In this document: piece after piece, positions 41,111-51,209 of the stretch | Position numbering within the stretch: position 1 is the first letter of the stretch | Layout of the letters: the number at the start of each line of letters is the position of its first letter | Assembly (NCBI GenBank): GCA_024277655.1 | Contig: JAJRUT010000063.1 | Coordinates: forward strand, 16,939-80,938 | Reading direction: 5' to 3' | DNA length: 64,000 nt | DNA from: Deltaproteobacteria bacterium | GTDB lineage: Bacteria; Desulfobacterota; Desulfobulbia; Desulfobulbales; SURF-16 | The notes under the pieces: model-generated | Databases searched by the model: none | Told to the model about the DNA's origin: nothing | What the model saw: the letters and a program-made list of their open reading frames with translations, nothing else | Made by a program: the position numbers and the translations under genes

Positions 41111-42142
41111 TTAAGCGATAGACCAGCCTGTTGACCTGTGGGATGAGCCGTCCTTGCCAAGAATAAAGCACTCGGAGTCTGTCCGTTTATTGATATAGGA
41201 AAGGCCATTTGTCGGTTGCATAACAAAAACTGCGGTGGACAGGGCATCGGCATCCATGACGGTGGCGGTTCTGATGGTTACGGAGGTGGATAGGGTTGGT
41301 GATACACCTGTTTTGGCATTGATGATGTGATGGAACATCTTTTCGTTATCATAGAAAATTTCATAGTTGCCTGAGGTGGCAATGGCCCCGTTGTGCATCT
41401 CAATGACGTTGGGGTAATCCTTGCCCTTGGCCGGATCTTGAATGGCAACAGTCCACGGCTTTGAATTGGCCGCCAGGCCTACGGTGCGGATATCGCCACC
41501 GGCATTTATAAGATGATTGCCAAGGCCGTTTGCTGACAGGACTTCAGAGGCCTTGTCAACGATATAGCCTTTGGCGATACCATCCAGGGTGATTCCCATG
41601 TCATCTCTGGCAAAGGAGATATTGCCGTCTGTAAAGATGATCTGCTCGGCACCAATCCGTTTTAAGGTGGCTTGGACTTCGGTTTCAGTTGGTTTAGCTC
41701 CGGCGGCAAAGGAGTTCTTGTACAGGTCGATCAGCGGGGCAACGGTGATGTCAAAGGCGCCACTGGTCTGTTTATGGTAGGCCAGTGAGCGGCCAACCAG
41801 TTCCAGCACCTCAAGGGGTGCATCTTGCAAGGAGCCGGTACGGTTTAAAACCGCAATGGGGGAAGATTCATCGTAGCGGCTGAGCAGATTGCTCAACCGA
41901 TCAATTTCGTTAAAGGCCAGGCCAAAGGCCTCCTGGGCCTCATCCTTGGAGGAATGAATGGCGGTCATGGAGATGTATGTTCCCATGCCAAGCTTGGTAG
42001 TGCTGACCTTATATTCTTTCTTGTTGAACCACAATGCTTCTGCCGATATGGCGGGCAGAACCGTTGCCGCAGTGGCACCAAGGCCTAAGAGGGCGGATTT
42101 CTTGAGGAAAGAACGTCTGTTTTGTTGATTGGTAGTCATCAT
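41111..42142 (-). CDS. apbE: FAD:protein FMN transferase (flavin transferase ApbE), Tat-exported
   Basis: Twin-arginine leader NRRSFLKKSALLGLGATAA. ApbE motifs GGAFDITV, LDGIAKGY, INAGGDI. Last gene of the rnf cluster. Confidence 0.88.
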   Translation of the reverse strand: MMTTNQQNRRSFLKKSALLGLGATAATVLPAISAEALWFNKKEYKVSTTKLGMGTYISMTAIHSSKDEAQEAFGLAFNEIDRLSNLLSRYDESSPIAVLNRTGSLQDAPLEVLELVGRSLAYHKQTSGAFDITVAPLIDLYKNSFAAGAKPTETEVQATLKRIGAEQIIFTDGNISFARDDMGITLDGIAKGYIVDKASEVLSANGLGNHLINAGGDIRTVGLAANSKPWTVAIQDPAKGKDYPNVIEMHNGAIATSGNYEIFYDNEKMFHHIINAKTGVSPTLSTSVTIRTATVMDADALSTAVFVMQPTNGLSYINKRTDSECFILGKDGSSHRSTGWSIA

Positions 42143-42262: not shown

Positions 42263-43135
42263 CTACCCCGCCATCTTCAGGCCGCCAGCATCGCGTTTTA
42301 AAACAGCAGGGCCAGCATATTTTCTAAAGATGCCCCTGGGACATTTTTCCGTACAGACCATCTCGCAACCATCGCCGTAGTCGATACATTTGGGGTGATC
42401 GACGCCAATTAATCCAGCCTCATAACTGACAGCATCGGCAGGGCATTTTTTCACGCAGATCTGGCAGGAAATGCAGCCGACCTCACACACCTTCTTCACA
42501 TTCTTACCAAGATCCTTGGTGGAGCAGGGCACATGGACTCTGGCCTTCAGGGTCTGTAGTTCAATAATCTTCTTGGGGCAGGCCTTGACGCAGGTGCCGC
42601 AACTTACGCATTTGTCCGGATTAACCATGGGGAAGTTGTCAACCATGGCAATGGCATCAAAGGGGCAACTGGCCGCACATTCACCCATACCGATACAGGC
42701 ATACTGGCATTTCGACGGGCCGCCAAAACCAAGATTGGCCGCCGTACAGGAGGCAAAACCGATATACTCATGCTTGTGGCTGACCCGGCCTTCAATGCGT
42801 GAACAACGCACCGAGGCGATCATGTCTTCCATGGCGGTCATCTTCTTGCCGGTCAAGGTGGCGACCCTCTCTGCCACCGCCTCTTTGCCGGGATAACAGA
42901 GGTTGGGTGGGACATCAGGGTCGTTGACCACAGCAATGGCGTACCCCTCGCAACCTGGATAACCGCAACCGCCACACTGGGCACCGGCCAGAGACTCCAG
43001 AACCTCTTCAATTAAAGGATCGGTCTCAACGGCAAACTTGTGGGCGGCAAGAGCAAGCCCGATACCGAAGAAGAGACCAATACAGCCAAGCATGGCAATG
43101 CCGCCGATGGCTATTTTTACTAATGCTGGATCCAT
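42263..43135 (-). CDS. rnfB: Rnf complex subunit B (polyferredoxin)
   Basis: N-terminal TM anchor, CGGCGYPGCEGYA motif, then several CxxCxxCxxxCP clusters. Confidence 0.88.
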   Translation of the reverse strand: MDPALVKIAIGGIAMLGCIGLFFGIGLALAAHKFAVETDPLIEEVLESLAGAQCGGCGYPGCEGYAIAVVNDPDVPPNLCYPGKEAVAERVATLTGKKMTAMEDMIASVRCSRIEGRVSHKHEYIGFASCTAANLGFGGPSKCQYACIGMGECAASCPFDAIAMVDNFPMVNPDKCVSCGTCVKACPKKIIELQTLKARVHVPCSTKDLGKNVKKVCEVGCISCQICVKKCPADAVSYEAGLIGVDHPKCIDYGDGCEMVCTEKCPRGIFRKYAGPAVLKRDAGGLKMAG

Positions 43136-43180: not shown

Positions 43181-44116
43181 TTAAAAAATCTTCAGTCCTG
43201 AAAAACCAAGGAAGGCCAGGGCAAACTGACCTGCGACAATAAAGGCGATGGGAATGCCTTCAAAGGTCTTGGGTATCTGGGCAAATTCCATTCGTTCCCG
43301 TACCGAACTCATAAGATACAGCGCAAGGAGGAAGCCACTACCGGCCCCAAGGGACAGCATCAGGGTTTCCAAGAAATTATACTCATTGTCGGCAAGGATC
43401 AGGGGTACCGCGATAATAACGCAGTTGGCAATTACCAGAACCAGATAGACCCCGAAGGACTGGAAGAGAGCCGGATTCACCTTACGAAGTACTGTATCCA
43501 CCGCCTGCACGGTGAGGGATACAAGGCCGATAAAGACGACAATTTGCAGGAAGTTTAAGTGGAAGGGCTTCATGACATATTGGTAGAAGAACCAACTCAT
43601 GATGGCACTGACCACCATGACAATGGTGAAGGTGAAACCCATGCCCTTGGCGGTGTCCTTTCTTTTGGAGGTACCAAAAAAGACGCAGAGTCCGAGGTAT
43701 TTGGTGAAGACAAAGTTGTTGATCAGAAGGGCTGAAATCAAAATAGAAAAGAGATAACCCCAGTATGATTTTGCCACCTGAAAGATAAAGGGCGATACCT
43801 TGTCGTGGGTCATGACTGCCACCACATGGGTCTCGGTGGTGTTGAGCGGCTCACTGAAGATGAGATGTGCCGTCTTGCCATCGGCAGACAGGGTTATGGT
43901 GTCAATGGTAAGACGAATGTCCGGGTCTGGCTCTTCATAGACCGTGTAATTGTTGATATCTGTGGCTATGGCCGCACTCGTAGGGGCAGCGAAGGTCAGA
44001 ATAATCTCGTTCGGCTCGCCAAAACTCTTACTGGTGATAAGATCACCGGCCTGAGCAAGACTGGGTAAGAGGGCGAGGACAGCGAGGAGGAAAAGCTTGC
44101 ACACGAATGATTTCAT
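43181..44116 (-). CDS. rnfA: Rnf complex subunit A with an extra N-terminal signal peptide and a roughly 80-aa Ig-like domain
   Basis: Residues about 117-311 are canonical RnfA (LINNFVFTKYLGLCVFFGTSKR ... GIPIAFIVAGQFALAFLGF). Residues 1-23 form a signal peptide ending in AQA. The ATG overlaps the rnfE stop (ATGA). Confidence 0.85.
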   Translation of the reverse strand: MKSFVCKLFLLAVLALLPSLAQAGDLITSKSFGEPNEIILTFAAPTSAAIATDINNYTVYEEPDPDIRLTIDTITLSADGKTAHLIFSEPLNTTETHVVAVMTHDKVSPFIFQVAKSYWGYLFSILISALLINNFVFTKYLGLCVFFGTSKRKDTAKGMGFTFTIVMVVSAIMSWFFYQYVMKPFHLNFLQIVVFIGLVSLTVQAVDTVLRKVNPALFQSFGVYLVLVIANCVIIAVPLILADNEYNFLETLMLSLGAGSGFLLALYLMSSVRERMEFAQIPKTFEGIPIAFIVAGQFALAFLGFSGLKIF

Positions 44117-44736
44117 GAGGCCACCTGCTTTAATTTTCTGTAGCGGATTTCGATATAGTTGAAAAATGCCATCATCAGGCCTACCACAAAGAAACCGGCA
44201 CAGGGCAGAACGAAGAAGAGCAGAGGTCTTACTCCGCCCAGCACTTCAAAACCGAGGATGGTGCCAAGGCCAAGCAGTTCGCGAACCAGGCCAATCGCCA
44301 TCATACCTGCCATAAAGCCAAGTCCCATGCCAACCCCATCCCAGAATGAGGCGTTGACCGACTCCTTGCAGGCAAACATTTCAAGGCGCATGGTGATGAT
44401 GGCAAAGGCCACAATGAGTTTGATAAAGACGCCCATCTGTGAATATGGCCCTGGCATATAGGCTGCCATTACCAGGTCAATAACCGTTACCCAGGTAGCA
44501 ATGGTCAAGGTGTAGGACGGAATCCGGATACGGGGGTGAATCTTGTTTTTAAATAACGAGATTGTCACACTGGAGAAGACTTGGACAAAGAGTACAGCAA
44601 GCCCCAGCATAATGCCGTTCATCACGGTTGTGGAAATGCCAACCGCCGGGCACATGGATAATACGAGCCGGAAGATCGGGTTTTCATTGAGGATGCCGTT
44701 GGCAACCAGTTGCATATTTGATTTATCGTTGGCCAT
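44113..44736 (-). CDS. rnfE: Rnf complex subunit E
   Basis: NENPIFRLVLSMCPAVG and a 6-TM pattern homologous to RnfA. Operon position. Confidence 0.88.
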   Translation of the reverse strand: MANDKSNMQLVANGILNENPIFRLVLSMCPAVGISTTVMNGIMLGLAVLFVQVFSSVTISLFKNKIHPRIRIPSYTLTIATWVTVIDLVMAAYMPGPYSQMGVFIKLIVAFAIITMRLEMFACKESVNASFWDGVGMGLGFMAGMMAIGLVRELLGLGTILGFEVLGGVRPLLFFVLPCAGFFVVGLMMAFFNYIEIRYRKLKQVAS

Positions 44737-44760: not shown

Positions 44761-45657
44761 CTAAAAGGGAACGGCGATGTTTTGTTCCTGAATGACCGCA
44801 TCCAAAATACCAATGCGGTAGGCAAATTTCTTGGTAATGCCCTTCACCCCGTTTGTTACCGATACACTGGAAATGGTGGCGCCGGTCAGGGCATAAATAT
44901 TTTTGTCCTTATAATTTTGTTGAACCAGGGCAACCTCTTCCTTGGAAATCTTACCATCAAGGGCCTGCCGGTAGTCATCGGGCAGGGGAACCTTGTCCAC
45001 CTCAAGATATTTCACGGCGGCAAAGGACTTGCCAATAAACTGGTTTTTAAAATAATCTTCTTTGATTTCAGCGCCGAGACCCGGATCTTCCTCGTGTTCC
45101 ATGATTTCCAGACCAAGGATGGTGAAGTCAGGTTCAAGGGCCAGCATAACATGGATGAATGTCTTAAAGCCGGGGAATTTACCCGACAGAAGATAGGCCG
45201 TGCGTTGGTCATTTGCGGTGGCGATAACGGTTTGATCGGCATAACGAATCGTCTTGCCTTTGCCAAGTGCTGTAAGGATGGCCTGATCGCGGTCGCTCTC
45301 ATCCCGTACGGAGGCATGATCGATATCCACGGGGTACTGACCGATGAAAGAACCGTCAAGGCTTATACTGATGAAGGTGAAACCGCCATGTTCGCCATGG
45401 CCTGTCGGCACAAGATAGCCCACGGAAAGTTCGTCGCCGGTGGTAACAACATAACGGAAGAGTTCATGCAGTTTGACTTCTGCAGGGATTCCCTTGCTCA
45501 CATCGTAACCGAGCAACCCGTAGGAGACCTTTTGTTCATTCTTGTATTTGTTCTGTTTTTTTGCATCGGAGGTGATGATGAATGTGGCTCCCATCACAGC
45601 TCCGGCCATCAGACACGATACGGTCAGTCTGATGATAATGGTCATGATATCTTTCAT
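44761..45657 (-). CDS. rnfG: Rnf complex subunit G (FMN-binding), unusually long
   Basis: N-terminal TM anchor. FMN_bind domain with the flavinylation motif ALTGATISS. 298 aa. Confidence 0.82.
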   Translation of the reverse strand: MKDIMTIIIRLTVSCLMAGAVMGATFIITSDAKKQNKYKNEQKVSYGLLGYDVSKGIPAEVKLHELFRYVVTTGDELSVGYLVPTGHGEHGGFTFISISLDGSFIGQYPVDIDHASVRDESDRDQAILTALGKGKTIRYADQTVIATANDQRTAYLLSGKFPGFKTFIHVMLALEPDFTILGLEIMEHEEDPGLGAEIKEDYFKNQFIGKSFAAVKYLEVDKVPLPDDYRQALDGKISKEEVALVQQNYKDKNIYALTGATISSVSVTNGVKGITKKFAYRIGILDAVIQEQNIAVPF

Positions 45658-46745
45658 TTGCCACCCCCTGGAGGTGGAGCAAGTGGGGCAAAACGCTTGG
45701 GTTTAAACATGGTATCAAGCACACTGCTAACAGGGTTCATAAGAAGAATGGCGTAACAGATCCCCTCCGGATAACCACCCTTTAGGCGGATCAGTACCGT
45801 CAAGGCGCCAATGCCTACGCCATACACGAGTTGCGCGGTTTTATTGGTCGGGCAGGTGACGTAGTCATTAGCCATAAAGAAGGCTCCAAGCATGGCGCCA
45901 CCCGTTAAAATGGCAAGGAGCGGGTCGCCGCTACAATACACGTCCCCGCCAAATATCCAAGTAAAGGCGGCAATGGAGCCTAAGGTTGAGGCCGGTATAT
46001 GCCAGGTGATATAGCCCTTATACATGAGGTAGAGGCCACCGAGTAAAATAAGCAGGGCCGAGGTCTCACCGATTGAGCCTGGTTGGATACCCACAAAGAA
46101 ATTGGTGTAGATATTACTTGCTGTACCAAACTGGGCTTGAAAGGCCTCAATTCCCTGCTCCTTCATGACGGCAAGGGGTGTTGCCGAGGAGACGCTATCC
46201 ACTGTGGTGCCGAGAAAGGTGAAGAGGCTGTTGTTTGGGGCAATCCAGGCTGATGTCATGGCCACAGGAAAGGTTGCCAGCAGAAAAGCGCGGGCTAGGA
46301 GTGCCGGGTTAAAGATGTTGTAGCCAATACCACCCAGGAGATGCTTGCCGATGTAAATTGCCATCACTGCCCCAAGGACAGGGAGTAGAAACGACACATC
46401 CGGCGGGATCATAAAGGCAATGAGCATACCGGTGATTACGGCACTGCCGTCGCTTACCGTGATCTTGCGGCCCAAGGATTTCTGGCTGATGGCTTCCATG
46501 GCCACGCAACTTGCCACAGACACCGCTGTGATCAACAGGGTCTGTACTCCAAAAATAAAGACAGACAGCACAAGGGGTGGAACCAGACAGGCCACCACCG
46601 ACCACATGATTTTTTCGACTGACTCAGGGGATTTGACGTGGGGAGATATGGAAACCTTCCATAACCTCCGATGGGTGCCCTGGTTATCTGATGCTTGCTG
46701 ATTAATGACTTCTCTCCTTTCTGCATTAAGTTTCACGATCGTCAC
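45654..46745 (-). CDS. rnfD: Rnf complex subunit D
   Basis: SISPHVKSPESVEKIMWSVVACL (the SPH motif of RnfD/NqrB), a polytopic membrane profile, and a SGAT-like TGGAMLGAFFMAND segment. The exact start is uncertain because there is no good ATG near the SPH motif. Confidence 0.82.
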   Translation of the reverse strand: MTIVKLNAERREVINQQASDNQGTHRRLWKVSISPHVKSPESVEKIMWSVVACLVPPLVLSVFIFGVQTLLITAVSVASCVAMEAISQKSLGRKITVSDGSAVITGMLIAFMIPPDVSFLLPVLGAVMAIYIGKHLLGGIGYNIFNPALLARAFLLATFPVAMTSAWIAPNNSLFTFLGTTVDSVSSATPLAVMKEQGIEAFQAQFGTASNIYTNFFVGIQPGSIGETSALLILLGGLYLMYKGYITWHIPASTLGSIAAFTWIFGGDVYCSGDPLLAILTGGAMLGAFFMANDYVTCPTNKTAQLVYGVGIGALTVLIRLKGGYPEGICYAILLMNPVSSVLDTMFKPKRFAPLAPPPGGGK

Positions 46746-46837: not shown

Positions 46838-48157
46838 CTATCTTTTGGCCTTCATCTTTGCCAAGCGAATAAACTGAACCAGTGGTCGTTTTGCCGGACA
46901 AACGTAGGCGCAACAGCCACATTCAAAACATTCAAAGACTCCGAACTGGTTGGTGTCCTCTCCCTTGCCAGCCTCGACATGGATGGCAATTTCTTTGGGT
47001 TCGAGTCCCATGGGGCACGCCTCAAGGCACCAGCCACAGCGGATGCAATTGGAGTGCGGGGTGGTGTCAATCTCCTCTTCGGCCAGAAAGAGGATGGAAC
47101 CGGTGGTTTTGGTGATGGGGATGTCTAGACTCGAGACATTAAAGCCCATCATGGGGCCGCCCATGATGATTTTGGATAACCTGTCGTTGGTGCCGCCACA
47201 ATATTCGACGATGTCGCTAAGCTTAGTGCCGACCTTGATCTTGAAGTTACCAACCTTGTTGATGCCAAGGCCGGAAACGGTGACGATCTTCTCGTAGAGT
47301 GGTTTGCCAAGGACAACCGCCTCGTAGATGGCGCGTGTTGTGCCAACGTTATGGACCACAACGCCGACGGATGAGGGCAGGGCAAAGCCTTTGACCTTAC
47401 GGCCGGTAAGGGACTGGATGAGTTGTTTTTCCGATCCTTGGGGGTATTTTACCTCAAGAGGGGAGACTTGGACATTGAACTCCGATGTTGACCCCTCTGC
47501 GGCCGCCTCACCCATGACCTTGATGGCCTCAGGCTTATTGGCTTCAATGCCGATTATGCAATTCTTGACGCCGAGAATCTTAAGGATAATCTTGGCCCCC
47601 TCGACAATCTCTGTGCTCATTTCAAGCATCTGGCGATAGTCGGAGGTGATATACGGTTCGCATTCTGCCCCGTTTAAAATCAGGGTGTCGATGGGGTCAG
47701 AGGGCGGGGGGGAGAGTTTGACGTGGGATGGGAACCCTGCGCCACCGATACCAACCATGCCGGCATCACGCACCAGACCAACAAGCTCTTTTGCATCCCG
47801 TTGCGACCAGTCACTAACATTATGCTCGTTGGCACTGGCCTCGTGATCCACCTTGATGGTGATGGAGGGTGCCTTGACCTGCATGGGGTGATCGGACATT
47901 CCCATAAGCTTGATGGTGCCAGCGGCAGGGGCGTGGAGCGGCACTCCAAGCCCTTTTTTTACCTCGCCAATCATTTGCCCTTCGCTCACGGTGTCACGCC
48001 GTTCCACGGTTGGAGTGCAGGGGGCACCAATATGCTGACCCAGGATGATTTCAAGCTCATCAGGGGTGGGGATGGTCTCAATGGGACAATCCGCAGTGAG
48101 CTTTTTTGCGTCCGGTGGGTGAACACCACCCTTGGGGAAGGTGAATAAGGTTGTCAT
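46838..48157 (-). CDS. rnfC: Rnf complex subunit C
   Basis: MTTLFTFPKGGVHPP N-terminus, GIGGAGFPSHVKL nucleotide-binding motif, and two C-terminal 4Fe-4S motifs (CIRCGWCLEACP, CFECGCCAYVCP). Confidence 0.92.
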   Translation of the reverse strand: MTTLFTFPKGGVHPPDAKKLTADCPIETIPTPDELEIILGQHIGAPCTPTVERRDTVSEGQMIGEVKKGLGVPLHAPAAGTIKLMGMSDHPMQVKAPSITIKVDHEASANEHNVSDWSQRDAKELVGLVRDAGMVGIGGAGFPSHVKLSPPPSDPIDTLILNGAECEPYITSDYRQMLEMSTEIVEGAKIILKILGVKNCIIGIEANKPEAIKVMGEAAAEGSTSEFNVQVSPLEVKYPQGSEKQLIQSLTGRKVKGFALPSSVGVVVHNVGTTRAIYEAVVLGKPLYEKIVTVSGLGINKVGNFKIKVGTKLSDIVEYCGGTNDRLSKIIMGGPMMGFNVSSLDIPITKTTGSILFLAEEEIDTTPHSNCIRCGWCLEACPMGLEPKEIAIHVEAGKGEDTNQFGVFECFECGCCAYVCPAKRPLVQFIRLAKMKAKR

Positions 48158-48295: not shown

Positions 48296-48809
48296 GATGC
48301 TATTTAGTGGATTGAGAGTGCCGGAGTGAGAGGTGAGTATTCATGAGACTGGAGTCTGTGATTTGGGTGGGCAGGAACTTTGCGGTGGTAAATCTGGTGC
48401 TGCTTCAGGTCAAAATGGTTTTTAGACCAGTTTTTTTGGTTTATGAAAAGTCTTTTATTTCAGTGTGTTGCGCTTCATTCTTGGCGGTTGCTCCGGCGTT
48501 TCCCGCTGGCAACCAGGGAATTATTATCATCTTATCTTGGTTTTATGGAGTAAAATCCACAGGTTGCCCCTCTGGATAAAAACGAGGAATCACATATCGG
48601 CAACTTCCCTGTAAAACTTTAACAAAATTTGCTTTTTTTTAAAGAAGCTCTATAGTTTTTTGATCGGCAGTGTTGATGTCGTGGCAATTTGTTTCTTTTC
48701 TGCTGAAGGGATTTCGGTGGGAGGATGAGTTGTATCAGTCCAAAAAAAAGGCTGTCAGGGAGGAGTGTGACGCCGTCTTGACGCCAAAACCACGGAAGGG
48801 GTGACGATC

Positions 48810-51209
48810 ATGGCAATTTCAGGTGTAGGGAGCTCGGCAAGTCTTATAGCGTTGTATAATTTTAATCAGTCCACTGCCGGTTTAAACAGGTCGGTGGAGC
48901 GCCTGTCATCTGGTCTGCGGATTAACCGGGCGGCGGATGATGCGGCCGGAATGATCATCGCCGATGGCCTGTCCAGTCAGGCCAAGTCCATGGGCCAGGC
49001 GATTCGTAATGCCACCGATGGTATCTCCATCATGCAGGTGGCGGATTCGGCACTTAGCGAGTCGGTCAGTATTATGAACTCGGTGAAGACCAAGGCCGTG
49101 CAGGCGGCTCAGGACAGCCAGACCACGGCGTCGCGTAAGGTGCTACAGAATGATATCAATAAGCTCCTTGAGGAGTTTGATCTTATTGCCCGGAGTTCAA
49201 AGTTCAATGAAAAGCCGCTTTTAACCGGTGTTTTTTCCGGCAAGGAGTTTCAGGTTGGGGCCACCAGTCGCGAGACGATCGCCGCCTCTCTCTTCTAGGC
49301 TGAATCCACCAAGGTTGGTCATTTAAATACGGCTAAACTTTCCATAACTAATAGTACGGGTGGCTCGGTGGCCTTAAGCTTTACCAGTAGTGGTGGTGAG
49401 ACTCTGGTCTTGCAGTCGGTGCCAGTGGAGTACGCCAATGATATCGAGAAATCCATGCAGGCGGTGGCAGATAACATCAATAATTATAAGGATCAGACCG
49501 GGATCTCGGCTCGGGCTGTTGTCGAGTCCACCGGTACCGATGCCGTGCAGGCTGGGACTACGGATACCACCTTTGCCATCAATGGTATTACCATCGGCAC
49601 GGTGACGAGTTCAGCTAATGATAGTGACGGCGCCTTGACCAGTGCTATCAATCAGGTGACCTCGTCAACCGGGGTTACTGCTGCGATTACAAGTTCTGGG
49701 CAGTTGCAACTCACAAGCGACGGACGACCCATTCAGGTCTCCGGTGTCGGCACGGCTCTTACGGCAAGTGATGCCAGCGCCGCCTCAACCTTTGGTCATA
49801 TTCAGCTCTATCAGCGGGGGGCGTATTCTATTGATATGACTGATCTCTCCAGTGGCCTTGCCGTGAGTTTTAGTGCAAATCTGGACTTTACGGGTACCAT
49901 GACCACCACGATTGATTCCACCCTCGCCACCTCATCGGTGTTGGGGGCGGGTTCGACCCTCTCGGCAGGTTTTACCACAGGTGCTATCCTCACCGACACC
50001 AGTCTGGCTGGTGATATTACCACGACCAGTGATTCCACCTTAAAGTCCACCACAACTCTGGCAACGACCTCGGTGATTGCCAGGGACTCGGTCTTTGGTG
50101 GCAGTGGGGTGAGCAGTAACCAGGTGACCTCGGTTGGCGACACCCTCCTTGCGGCTGGCTCCACCCTTATTTCCGGCTCCACCCTTGCCGCTGGAACCTA
50201 TCTTACCAACGACATCAGTACGGCCTCCGGAACTATATCGGCTGGAACGACATTGTCGGCGGCAACTACCACTGATGCCGATACTACAATCACCAATGCC
50301 ATGCTGGCCCTGACCGGATCTGTACTTGGTACGGGTTCTACCTTTGCCAGTGATTCCACCGTGGGGGGTAATGTTACCCTGGCCTCCACCATGACCCTGT
50401 CTCAGGATATGAGTTTAAAATCTGGTTCCACCATTGTTGATGCGGCAGGTCTGAGTCTGGCTGCCGGTTCTGTCATTGGCGGAGCCGCTACCGTTGCTGG
50501 GGGTGATGTAACCATGACCTCCTCCATGACGGTAAAGTCCGGTTCTGTGTTATCGGCAACCTCATCGCTTGCCACTGGTTCCACCATCGGTGGCTCGGCA
50601 ACCTTGAATGGAGCCCACACCACCACGGCGGATCTCTCGTTATCCGCTGGTACTGTAATTGCTGATGCTAGTGTGCTCAAGCAGGGCACTGAACTCACCA
50701 ATGATATCGTCACCACCCTTGGCACCATTAGCGCTGGGACTACCCTTGAGCAGGACTATACTACCCAGGGTTCCAATACCTTGCTTTTCGCCCAGACTGT
50801 ACAATCCGGCTCGGTTCTTGCCGATGCTAGTGTTCTTGCTGCCAATGCCGGGGGCGCAGCATCAACGGCACTCACTGAAGAATCCATGAATCGCCTGGTA
50901 GACCTGTCAGTTCTCACCCAGGAGTCAGCCCAGATGGCCATGGAAATTGCCGATGCGGCCCTGGCCGATCTGTCCAGTATCAGGAGTTCGGTGGGCTCAA
51001 CCCAAAATCAGTTCACCTCAGCCATTGCCTATCTCACCACCTCTAAGATGAATCTGGAATCAGCCACCTCCGCCATAATGGATGTGGATCTCGCTGAGGA
51101 GTCCATGGTCTTTGCCCGGATGCAGGTGCTTAACCAGTCCGGAGCCTTTGCCTTGACCCAGGCCAATGCCATTTCCGGCAATGTTCTCAGCTTGTTTCAG
51201 GGAGCATAG
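48810..51209 (+). pseudogene. fliC: giant flagellin interrupted by a single in-frame TAG (or a split flagellin)
   Basis: ORFs 48801-49298 and 49368-51209 share one frame. The only stop between them is TAG at 49296-49298 (..ETIAASLF*AESTKVGHL..). The first ORF holds the N-terminal flagellin domain (LSSGLRINRAADDAAG). The second ends in the C-terminal flagellin domain (IRSSVGSTQNQFTSAI ... NVLSLFQGA). The likely start is the ATG at 48810 (MAISGV). Confidence 0.75.

Follow-up and report, generated by a model that had tools for sequence, protein, structure and literature searches.

The RnfA and RnfE subunits of the Rnf complex are paralogues of inverted topology, a property that a 2025 review of RNF and NQR cites from Sääf et al. 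1999, and the same review describes the RnfA/E core as exceptionally conserved (PMC12174285). Solved RnfA and NqrE chains are 190-198 amino acids (aa) long and start at transmembrane helix 1 (TM1). In Acetobacterium woodii the membrane [2Fe-2S] cluster is held by C25 and C113 of RnfA together with C25 and C108 of RnfE, and cysteine mutants are inactive (PMC11889175); Vitt et al. call the four cluster cysteines invariant (PMC9588780). The main contact of RnfG is in the cavity that RnfA and RnfE enclose (PMC11889175); RnfA has its N-terminal helix near RnfG, and RnfG shuttles between RnfAE and RnfD (PMC9588780). In this shuttle the mobile flavin mononucleotide (FMN) domain of RnfG accepts the electron while docked in the periplasmic RnfA/E groove, and afterwards moves across to RnfD. 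Here we analysed a stretch of 64,000 nucleotides (the window) from a Deltaproteobacteria bacterium of the Desulfobulbales (assembly GCA_024277655.1, contig JAJRUT010000063.1, positions 16,939 to 80,938), which carries an rnf operon whose RnfA is 311 aa long. To our knowledge, an Rnf complex with a periplasmic immunoglobulin (Ig)-like domain fused to RnfA, which we find in several Desulfobacterota lineages, has been undescribed until now.

A conserved N-terminal extension of RnfA

The features of rnfA in the window are given below as coordinates, strand and description.
43181-44116, minus strand: rnfA, long form, 311 aa, with signal peptide, Ig-like domain and Rnf-Nqr core (PF02508 and TIGR01943 matches).
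44048-44116, minus strand: predicted Sec-type signal peptide, RnfA aa 1-23 (MKSFVCKLFLLAVLALLPSLAQA), with cleavage predicted after AQA.
43769-44047, minus strand: Ig-like β-sandwich of the Big_5 or S-layer type, RnfA aa 24-116, assigned from AlphaFold2 (AF2), Foldseek, Big_5 matches in homologues and the ratio of non-synonymous to synonymous substitution rates (dN/dS).
43910-43948, minus strand: acidic β-hairpin Y57-TVYEEPDPDIRL-69 of RnfA, a lineage hallmark with invariant alignment columns D64, P65, D66 and I67.
43181-43768, minus strand: canonical six-helix RnfA core, aa 117-311, with C144 and C232, from alignment to solved RnfA.
44121-44126, minus strand: Shine-Dalgarno-like AGGTGG, 4 nucleotides (nt) 5' of the rnfA ATG and within the end of rnfE, read directly from the sequence.

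The C-terminal part of the protein matches PF02508 over aa 123-308 (E=1e-44, profile positions 2-173 of 174) and A. woodii RnfA over aa 123-310 (phmmer to 9eri_A, E=3.5e-50). Residues 3-6 of the solved RnfA chains (9eri, 7zc6 and 8ahx; 190-191 aa) align to residues 122-125 of the window protein, which leaves about 120 extra residues at its N terminus. A preliminary description of this locus, made without database searches, had called the 311-aa open reading frame (ORF) an RnfA extended relative to a canonical form of about 190 aa, with a core that begins near residue 117. Both statements held: the ORF sequence is exact, and the preceding domain runs to about residue 116. The window protein shares the six-helix core and both cysteines with canonical RnfA and NqrE (A. 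woodii 9ERI A, Clostridium tetanomorphum 7ZC6 A, Azotobacter vinelandii 8AHX A and Vibrio cholerae NqrE 7XK3 E), and these cysteines, C144 and C232, do not vary among 58 homologues and align to C25 and C113 in helices I and IV of A. woodii RnfA. The match to TIGR01943 (aa 122-308) scores 196.9 bits, below the curated cut-off of 229.3, and that to NF003481 scores 179.1 against a cut-off of 240. RnfA of the window is a member of a divergent subfamily that falls below the curated cut-offs.

The extension is kept together with the gene. All 120 best full-length matches are 294-317 aa long (308-317 aa in all but one) at a coverage of 92-100%. The rnfA ATG (44116-44114) overlaps the rnfE TGA (44115-44113) as ATGA. 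When 81 rnfE/rnfA junctions were scored for start position, 39 had the same 4-nt overlap with the rnfE stop and another 38 had the start between -1 and +13 nt, which places the start between -4 and +13 nt from the rnfE stop in 77 of the 81; in two junctions the start-picking heuristic took a GTG that lies 23-35 nt inside rnfE. Purine-rich Shine-Dalgarno-like motifs (GGGG/GGAG) occupy the equivalent position upstream of rnfA in related loci. Codon alignments of 78 genomic loci gave a dN/dS of 0.30 for the Ig-like domain, which is thus under purifying selection, versus 0.07 for the RnfA core, and mean pairwise identity in the homologue alignment is 38% for the signal region, 52% for the domain and 89% for the core. 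From the ATGA overlap at 44116 the preliminary description had argued that the long form is translated; the conserved junction and the dN/dS of the domain speak for the same view, as does the variability of the internal Met102 considered below. We conclude that the RnfA of this rnfCDGEAB-apbE operon is the full-length product of the 311-aa ORF.

The extension adopts a Big_5 or S-layer type Ig-like fold

We modelled aa 24-118 with AF2 from an alignment of 58 orthologous domains. The model is a confident β-sandwich of eight strands (predicted local distance difference test score (pLDDT) 92.2; predicted template-modelling score (pTM) 0.83). All of the top 18 Foldseek matches in the PDB are Ig domains of the S-layer proteins SbsC or Sap (query template-modelling score (TMq) 0.71-0.82, E 3e-5 to 7e-4), the best being SbsC 4uic (TMq 0.82) and Sap 8rx2 (TMq 0.74), with E values of 3e-5 to 7e-5 and a probability of 1.0; a sequence profile of the domain also retrieved the same Sap Ig domain from the PDB at E=0.002. 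The β-sandwich is thus common to the RnfA domain, Geobacillus SbsC (4UIC, 2RA1) and Bacillus anthracis Sap (8RX2, 6HHU), at TMq 0.72-0.82.

Family searches gave a divided answer. The window sequence itself matched no Pfam family at E<=1 (aa 1-117 or aa 24-118) and nothing in NCBIfam (aa 1-117), whereas 39 of the 58 orthologous domains matched Pfam Big_5 (PF13205), with a best E=4e-6. A domain profile searched against 1.84 billion representative proteins retrieved multi-repeat proteins at E=7e-67 to 1e-30, with up to 44 repeats, and these are bona fide Big_5 proteins (E=3.5e-84 to 1e-42). The closest relatives outside RnfA (P0122-P0129) are repeats in giant Big_5 proteins of up to 5729 aa, several of which have a C-terminal FlgD_ig-like domain. 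The preliminary description had proposed an Ig-like domain of the Big_5/SbsA-like kind at about residues 24-100. The family assignment stands, through the homologues and the fold if not through the window sequence itself; the proposed extent does not, as the domain spans about aa 24-116 (about 95 residues), with its last strand at aa 110-114. That strand joins TM1 within about three residues, and the domain is therefore likely to be held tightly on the membrane surface.

The RnfA domain shares with Big_5 the pattern ...vtFsxp..., ...NYxV..., ...tLxFxxPLxxxxxHvv..., and differs from its Big_5 and S-layer relatives in two respects. Whereas these are repeated in tandem within large proteins that are secreted or lie at the surface, RnfA has a single copy fused to a polytopic respiratory subunit. 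The second difference is the acidic hairpin, YEExDPDI, which is specific to the RnfA lineage and lies outside the general Big_5 pattern. It maps to model strands 57-61 and 64-68 and is kept, as YE(E/K)xDPDI, in the Desulfobulbales and in two further clades introduced below (Desulfomonile and lipobox). Residues invariant in the 58-sequence alignment are F32, E37, D64, P65, D66, I67, F87, L91, N92 and H97. When the model is read by strand order, as opposed to coordinates, the acidic hairpin and the F32-E37 loop would be membrane-distal, and the EPLN loop membrane-proximal. A CopC-like metal site was considered and rejected: a few members matched CopC weakly and Foldseek gave 9c14 at TM 0.56, but the mature N terminus is not His, and there is no conserved His pair, H97 being Tyr in the Desulfomonile clade.

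The Ig-like domain is predicted to be periplasmic

We called signal peptides from heuristic n-, h- and c-region features, as opposed to SignalP, and cleavage is a prediction. RnfA aa 1-23 have K2 and K7, a hydrophobic run (LFLLAVLALLPSL) and AQA before Gly24. The same features are kept in 78 homologues, with a net n-region charge of +1 to +3 followed by 12-21 consecutive uncharged residues; in 75 of the 78, position -1 is A or G. AF2 predicts a helix at aa 2-24. The resemblance of residues 1-23 to a Sec signal, noted in the preliminary description, thus extends to the homologues in charge, hydrophobic run and the small residue at -1; AQA in the window protein supplies small residues at both -3 and -1.

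Loop charges fit the periplasmic N terminus that the preliminary description had taken from published topology mapping. Loops 1-2, 3-4 and 5-6 of RnfA contain nine lysine and arginine residues, compared with one in loops 2-3 and 4-5, and by the positive-inside rule the start of TM1 is therefore outside, in agreement with the inverted arrangement of RnfA and RnfE in the literature (PMC12174285). Sääf et al. are said to have placed the RnfA N terminus outside in 1999. A folded N-terminal domain of 95 residues crosses the membrane only with an export device, and since the N terminus is out, the signal peptide would be the device by which the fusion became possible. Three such devices precede the domain in different relatives: the signal peptidase I (SPase I) type signal seen here, a lipoprotein signal (LLAGC; P0147 group) in place of an SPase I signal in the lipobox clade, and a signal-anchor-like helix ahead of the equivalent domain in P0179. 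That three different export devices stand before one domain argues strongly that the Ig-like domain is periplasmic. Examples of the lipobox form are L081 4965-5927 (P0147), P0145, P0150, P0151 and P0184, from metagenome-assembled genomes (MAGs) labelled Desulfobacteraceae or Thermodesulfobacteriota; judged by its signal, RnfA of this clade would be a lipid-modified polytopic membrane protein. We conclude that RnfA of the window is made with a Sec signal of the cleavable type, predicted to be removed, which would export the Ig-like domain to the periplasm.

RnfE lacks a cluster cysteine and RnfG is long

Two neighbouring subunits also depart from solved Rnf.
44113-44736, minus strand: rnfE, 207 aa, with a stop that overlaps the rnfA start (PF02508, E=2e-49).
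44401-44406, minus strand: RnfE F111-A112 replacing the canonical Asn-Cys, from alignment to 7zc6_E, 9eri_E and 7xk3_D.
44761-45657, minus strand: rnfG, long form, 298 aa, with the FMN-attachment motif LTGATISS, from a family search and comparison of length with solved RnfG.

The canonical RnfE sequence LIVVNCIILGRAEAFA reads LIVAFAIITMRLEMFACK in the window, and the helix-IV cysteine is gone. RnfE C29, in helix I, is present and invariant, and F111-A112 occupy the Asn-Cys site that holds C108/C109 of solved RnfE and C112 of NqrD (own residue numbering; the alignment shows NC). Phe and Ala are found at RnfE 111/112 in all 83 long-RnfA loci, and RnfE has no invariant replacement Cys across these loci (C123 is present in 68 of 83). 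Unlike canonical RnfA/NqrE systems, the partner RnfE is thus without the fourth cluster cysteine, and the RnfA/E site has three cysteines, two from RnfA and one from RnfE. Among the lineage-invariant RnfE residues no substitute ligand was convincing: S27, T115, M116 and M120 are near the site, and H67 lies in a cytoplasmic loop. RnfE scores below the TIGR01948 cut-off (176.5 versus 213.4) and above that of NF009070. The loss of the RnfE cysteine had been missed in the preliminary description; because of it, we place the long RnfA in a divergent Rnf subfamily and not in an ordinary Rnf with a decoration.

RnfG, at 298 aa, is about 90 aa longer than RnfG of solved Rnf complexes (189-207 aa), and NqrC has 257 aa. 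RnfG and NqrC sit on the periplasmic face of the complex, as does the Ig-like domain of RnfA, and RnfG of the window keeps the FMN-attachment motif. The additional residues are moderately conserved and fall partly ahead of the FMN_bind domain and partly within it; they include a conserved basic stretch directly after the membrane helix, AKKQNKYK (RnfG aa 32-39). In nearly all related loci with a complete rnfG the protein is 294-303 aa long, and the lipobox clade has 303 aa.

Distribution across the Desulfobacterota

When GTDB was scanned with a single genome for each species, at least 170 genomes encoded the RnfA domain; of the 80 that were listed, nearly all bear Desulfobulbales names, from the families Desulfobulbaceae, Desulfocapsaceae and Desulfurivibrionaceae. 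Cultured carriers are found in Desulfopila, Desulforhopalus, Desulfofustis, Desulfoprunum, Desulfosediminicola and Hydrosulfovibrio and among Desulfobulbus strains. Desulfomonile tiedjei and the Desulfomonilaceae form a second large clade (RnfA 317-318 aa), whose domain is 45% identical to that of the window, and the lipobox RnfA (320 aa), from the MAGs named above, form a third, at 38%. The extension is therefore lineage-wide and no singularity of one genome; an alignment of orthologues across the Desulfobulbales had been proposed in the preliminary description as a check of its conservation.

The preliminary description had also reckoned with an extension that is both widespread and already annotated. 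It is widespread; as to annotation, the family models stop at the core, and a precomputed Big_5 label was attached to one of the 120 matches. Orthologues go by the names "RnfA", "NADH-quinone reductase" and "Rnf-Nqr domain containing protein". Full-text literature searches found no paper on an N-terminal extension or Ig-like domain of RnfA, the one study retrieved (an article with its preprint) being on a toxin without relation to it, and the 2025 review makes no mention of the extension (PMC12174285). The extension is widespread in the Desulfobacterota and apparently has never been described. The legend to S9 Fig of one comparative study scores Rnf as absent from the Desulfobulbales (PMC10553843), which the 80 loci found here contradict.

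Possible roles of the Ig-like domain

We favour a reading, to which we give a probability of roughly 0.55, in which the Ig-like domain acts as a fixed brace on the periplasmic side, next to the mobile flavin domain of RnfG, and belongs to a divergent Desulfobacterota Rnf subfamily. The domain would be rigidly tethered on the periplasmic face, adjoining the RnfA/E groove where the FMN domain of RnfG docks. It would act within the complex: as a wall or brace it would touch those parts of RnfG that are specific to the lineage, and possibly also loops of RnfD or RnfE, and may thereby shape or stabilize the shuttling of RnfG between RnfA/E and RnfD. Long RnfA, long RnfG and the loss of the RnfE cysteine would together define the subfamily as mechanistically divergent. 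We prefer this internal role because long RnfG co-occurs with long RnfA and because no conserved exported partner gene is found beside the operon in the 83 loci.

Several points weigh against the brace. Shared ancestry, as opposed to physical coupling, could explain why long RnfA and long RnfG are found together. The AF2 model of full-length RnfA is too poor (pLDDT 63) to place the domain relative to the core, and the call of signal-peptide cleavage is heuristic. Ig-like domains of the Big_5 family are typically protein-protein or surface-interaction modules, and the acidic hairpin, if membrane-distal as the model is read, would fit the binding of a ligand or cation from outside as well as it fits the brace.

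The last two points lead to the suggestion made in the preliminary description, that the domain tethers Rnf to a periplasmic or envelope partner. Used in this way for docking, it might bind a c-type cytochrome or some other redox protein, or else peptidoglycan or a component of the outer layer, and would link Rnf to the periplasm. The nearest relatives by sequence are indeed repeats of giant surface proteins, and the acidic hairpin is both invariant and lineage-specific. There is also a precedent in Methanosarcina acetivorans, whose Rnf complex likewise has an extracytoplasmic component beyond RnfG, the accessory subunit MmcA (bioRxiv 10.1101/2022.07.20.500911, PMC11024163). However, MmcA is a separate, redox-active multihaem cytochrome encoded in the operon, whereas here an Ig-like domain with no cofactor is fused to RnfA and the operon encodes no cytochrome. 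Cytochrome genes, like those for exported partners, are missing as a conserved neighbour from the 83 loci, and neither kind occurs in the window between rnfC and the divergent neighbours. The domain itself has no Cys and no motif for haem or a metal cluster, its reach would be short since a single domain stands about three residues from TM1, and the RnfG extension offers a partner inside the complex. An external docking role is the main rival of the brace, and in our view an unlikely one.

A broader proposal, which we consider doubtful, is that of an altered Rnf subfamily in which the periplasmic face has been rebuilt, by the Ig-like domain on RnfA and the larger RnfG, and the cluster sits on three Cys. 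Either electrons could then enter or leave on the periplasmic side, or the gating of the RnfG shuttle and of ion coupling would differ from that in all characterized Rnf and Nqr complexes, with the Ig-like domain as a docking or gating element.

The domain may instead serve biogenesis, as a lock on the N-out topology of RnfA, opposite to that of RnfE, or as an assembly stabilizer with no catalytic role. RnfA and RnfE are paralogues of inverted topology (PMC12174285), a large exported N-terminal domain would fix the orientation, and the domain evolves faster than the core. Yet the core shows no loss of positive-inside bias, with nine lysine and arginine residues in the cytoplasmic loops versus six in A. 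woodii RnfA (by-eye count), so that a lock seems superfluous, and we give the proposal low weight for that reason. The invariant surface-type residues E37, E61/E62, D64, D66 and N92, kept across clades of 38-45% identity, moreover suggest a specific interface and not mere bulk.

Finally, it is very improbable that the extension is an artefact, with translation from Met102 or near TM1, or with an N-terminal part that belongs to a small gene of its own or was joined on by a frameshift. An in-frame ATG is present at 43813 and the Pfam and NCBIfam models cover the core alone, but relatives have Lys, Arg or Ala in place of Met102, and we reject that start; a protein begun there would also have a truncated half-strand ahead of TM1. 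Frame, length and a start beside the rnfE stop are kept in hundreds of sequences from independent assemblies, and the dN/dS of the domain and its confident predicted fold also argue against it. Given length, start junction, dN/dS and the lack of conservation of Met102, an internal start or chance fusion is excluded for practical purposes.

The rnf operon and its neighbours

The remaining genes of the operon lie on the same strand.
46838-48157, minus strand: rnfC, with RnfC_N, Complex1_51K, SLBB and Fer4 domains.
45654-46745, minus strand: rnfD (PF03116, E=1e-106).
42263-43135, minus strand: rnfB, with FeS and several Fer4 domains.
41111-42142, minus strand: apbE, encoding the flavin transferase that would attach FMN covalently to RnfG and RnfD (PF02424, E=8e-74).

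The operon is complete in the order rnfCDGEAB-apbE, an order repeated in 83 related loci, in most of which apbE follows rnfB; canonical RnfA is likewise encoded in an rnfCDGEAB operon with apbE. The ApbE N terminus (MMTTNQQNRRSFLKKSALLGLGATAATVLPAISAEA) resembles a twin-arginine (Tat) signal, which fits periplasmic flavinylation of RnfG and RnfD.

A single neighbour of the operon recurs: directly upstream of rnfC, 49 of the 83 related loci have a same-strand gene of about 334 aa, some 5 kb upstream of rnfA, whose product (NPIVAGSCGLTGS) looks like a dihydroorotate dehydrogenase by eye alone. This gene is not in the window, which instead has divergent flagellin-like genes upstream of rnfC. Two adjacent plus-strand ORFs there resemble one flagellin split in two: that at 48801-49298 (165 aa) has a flagellin N-terminal motif (LSSGLRINRAADDAAG), and that at 49368-51209 (613 aa, GTG start) has a long middle part rich in Thr, Ser, Gly and Ala and a flagellin-like C terminus. 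The split could stem from a frameshift, as in a pseudogene, or from an error of sequencing, or the ORFs may belong to a giant flagellin of an unusual kind.

Implications

Metabolic reconstructions may miss Rnf in these organisms because its subunits score below the family cut-offs and carry inconsistent names. Sulfur-cycling lineages of environmental importance, namely the Desulfobulbales families and the relatives of Desulfomonile, have an Rnf with three departures in the core: the RnfA domain, a long RnfG and the loss of an RnfE ligand. The main interest lies in the combination of the Ig-like domain with the long RnfG and a three-cysteine RnfA/E site, in which the shuttle and the cluster chemistry are directly testable. 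If the domain contacts RnfG, these lineages would offer a natural experiment on the guidance of the RnfG shuttle, a contested step in coupling; if it docks an outside partner, ferredoxin/NAD+ chemistry would be linked to the periplasm.

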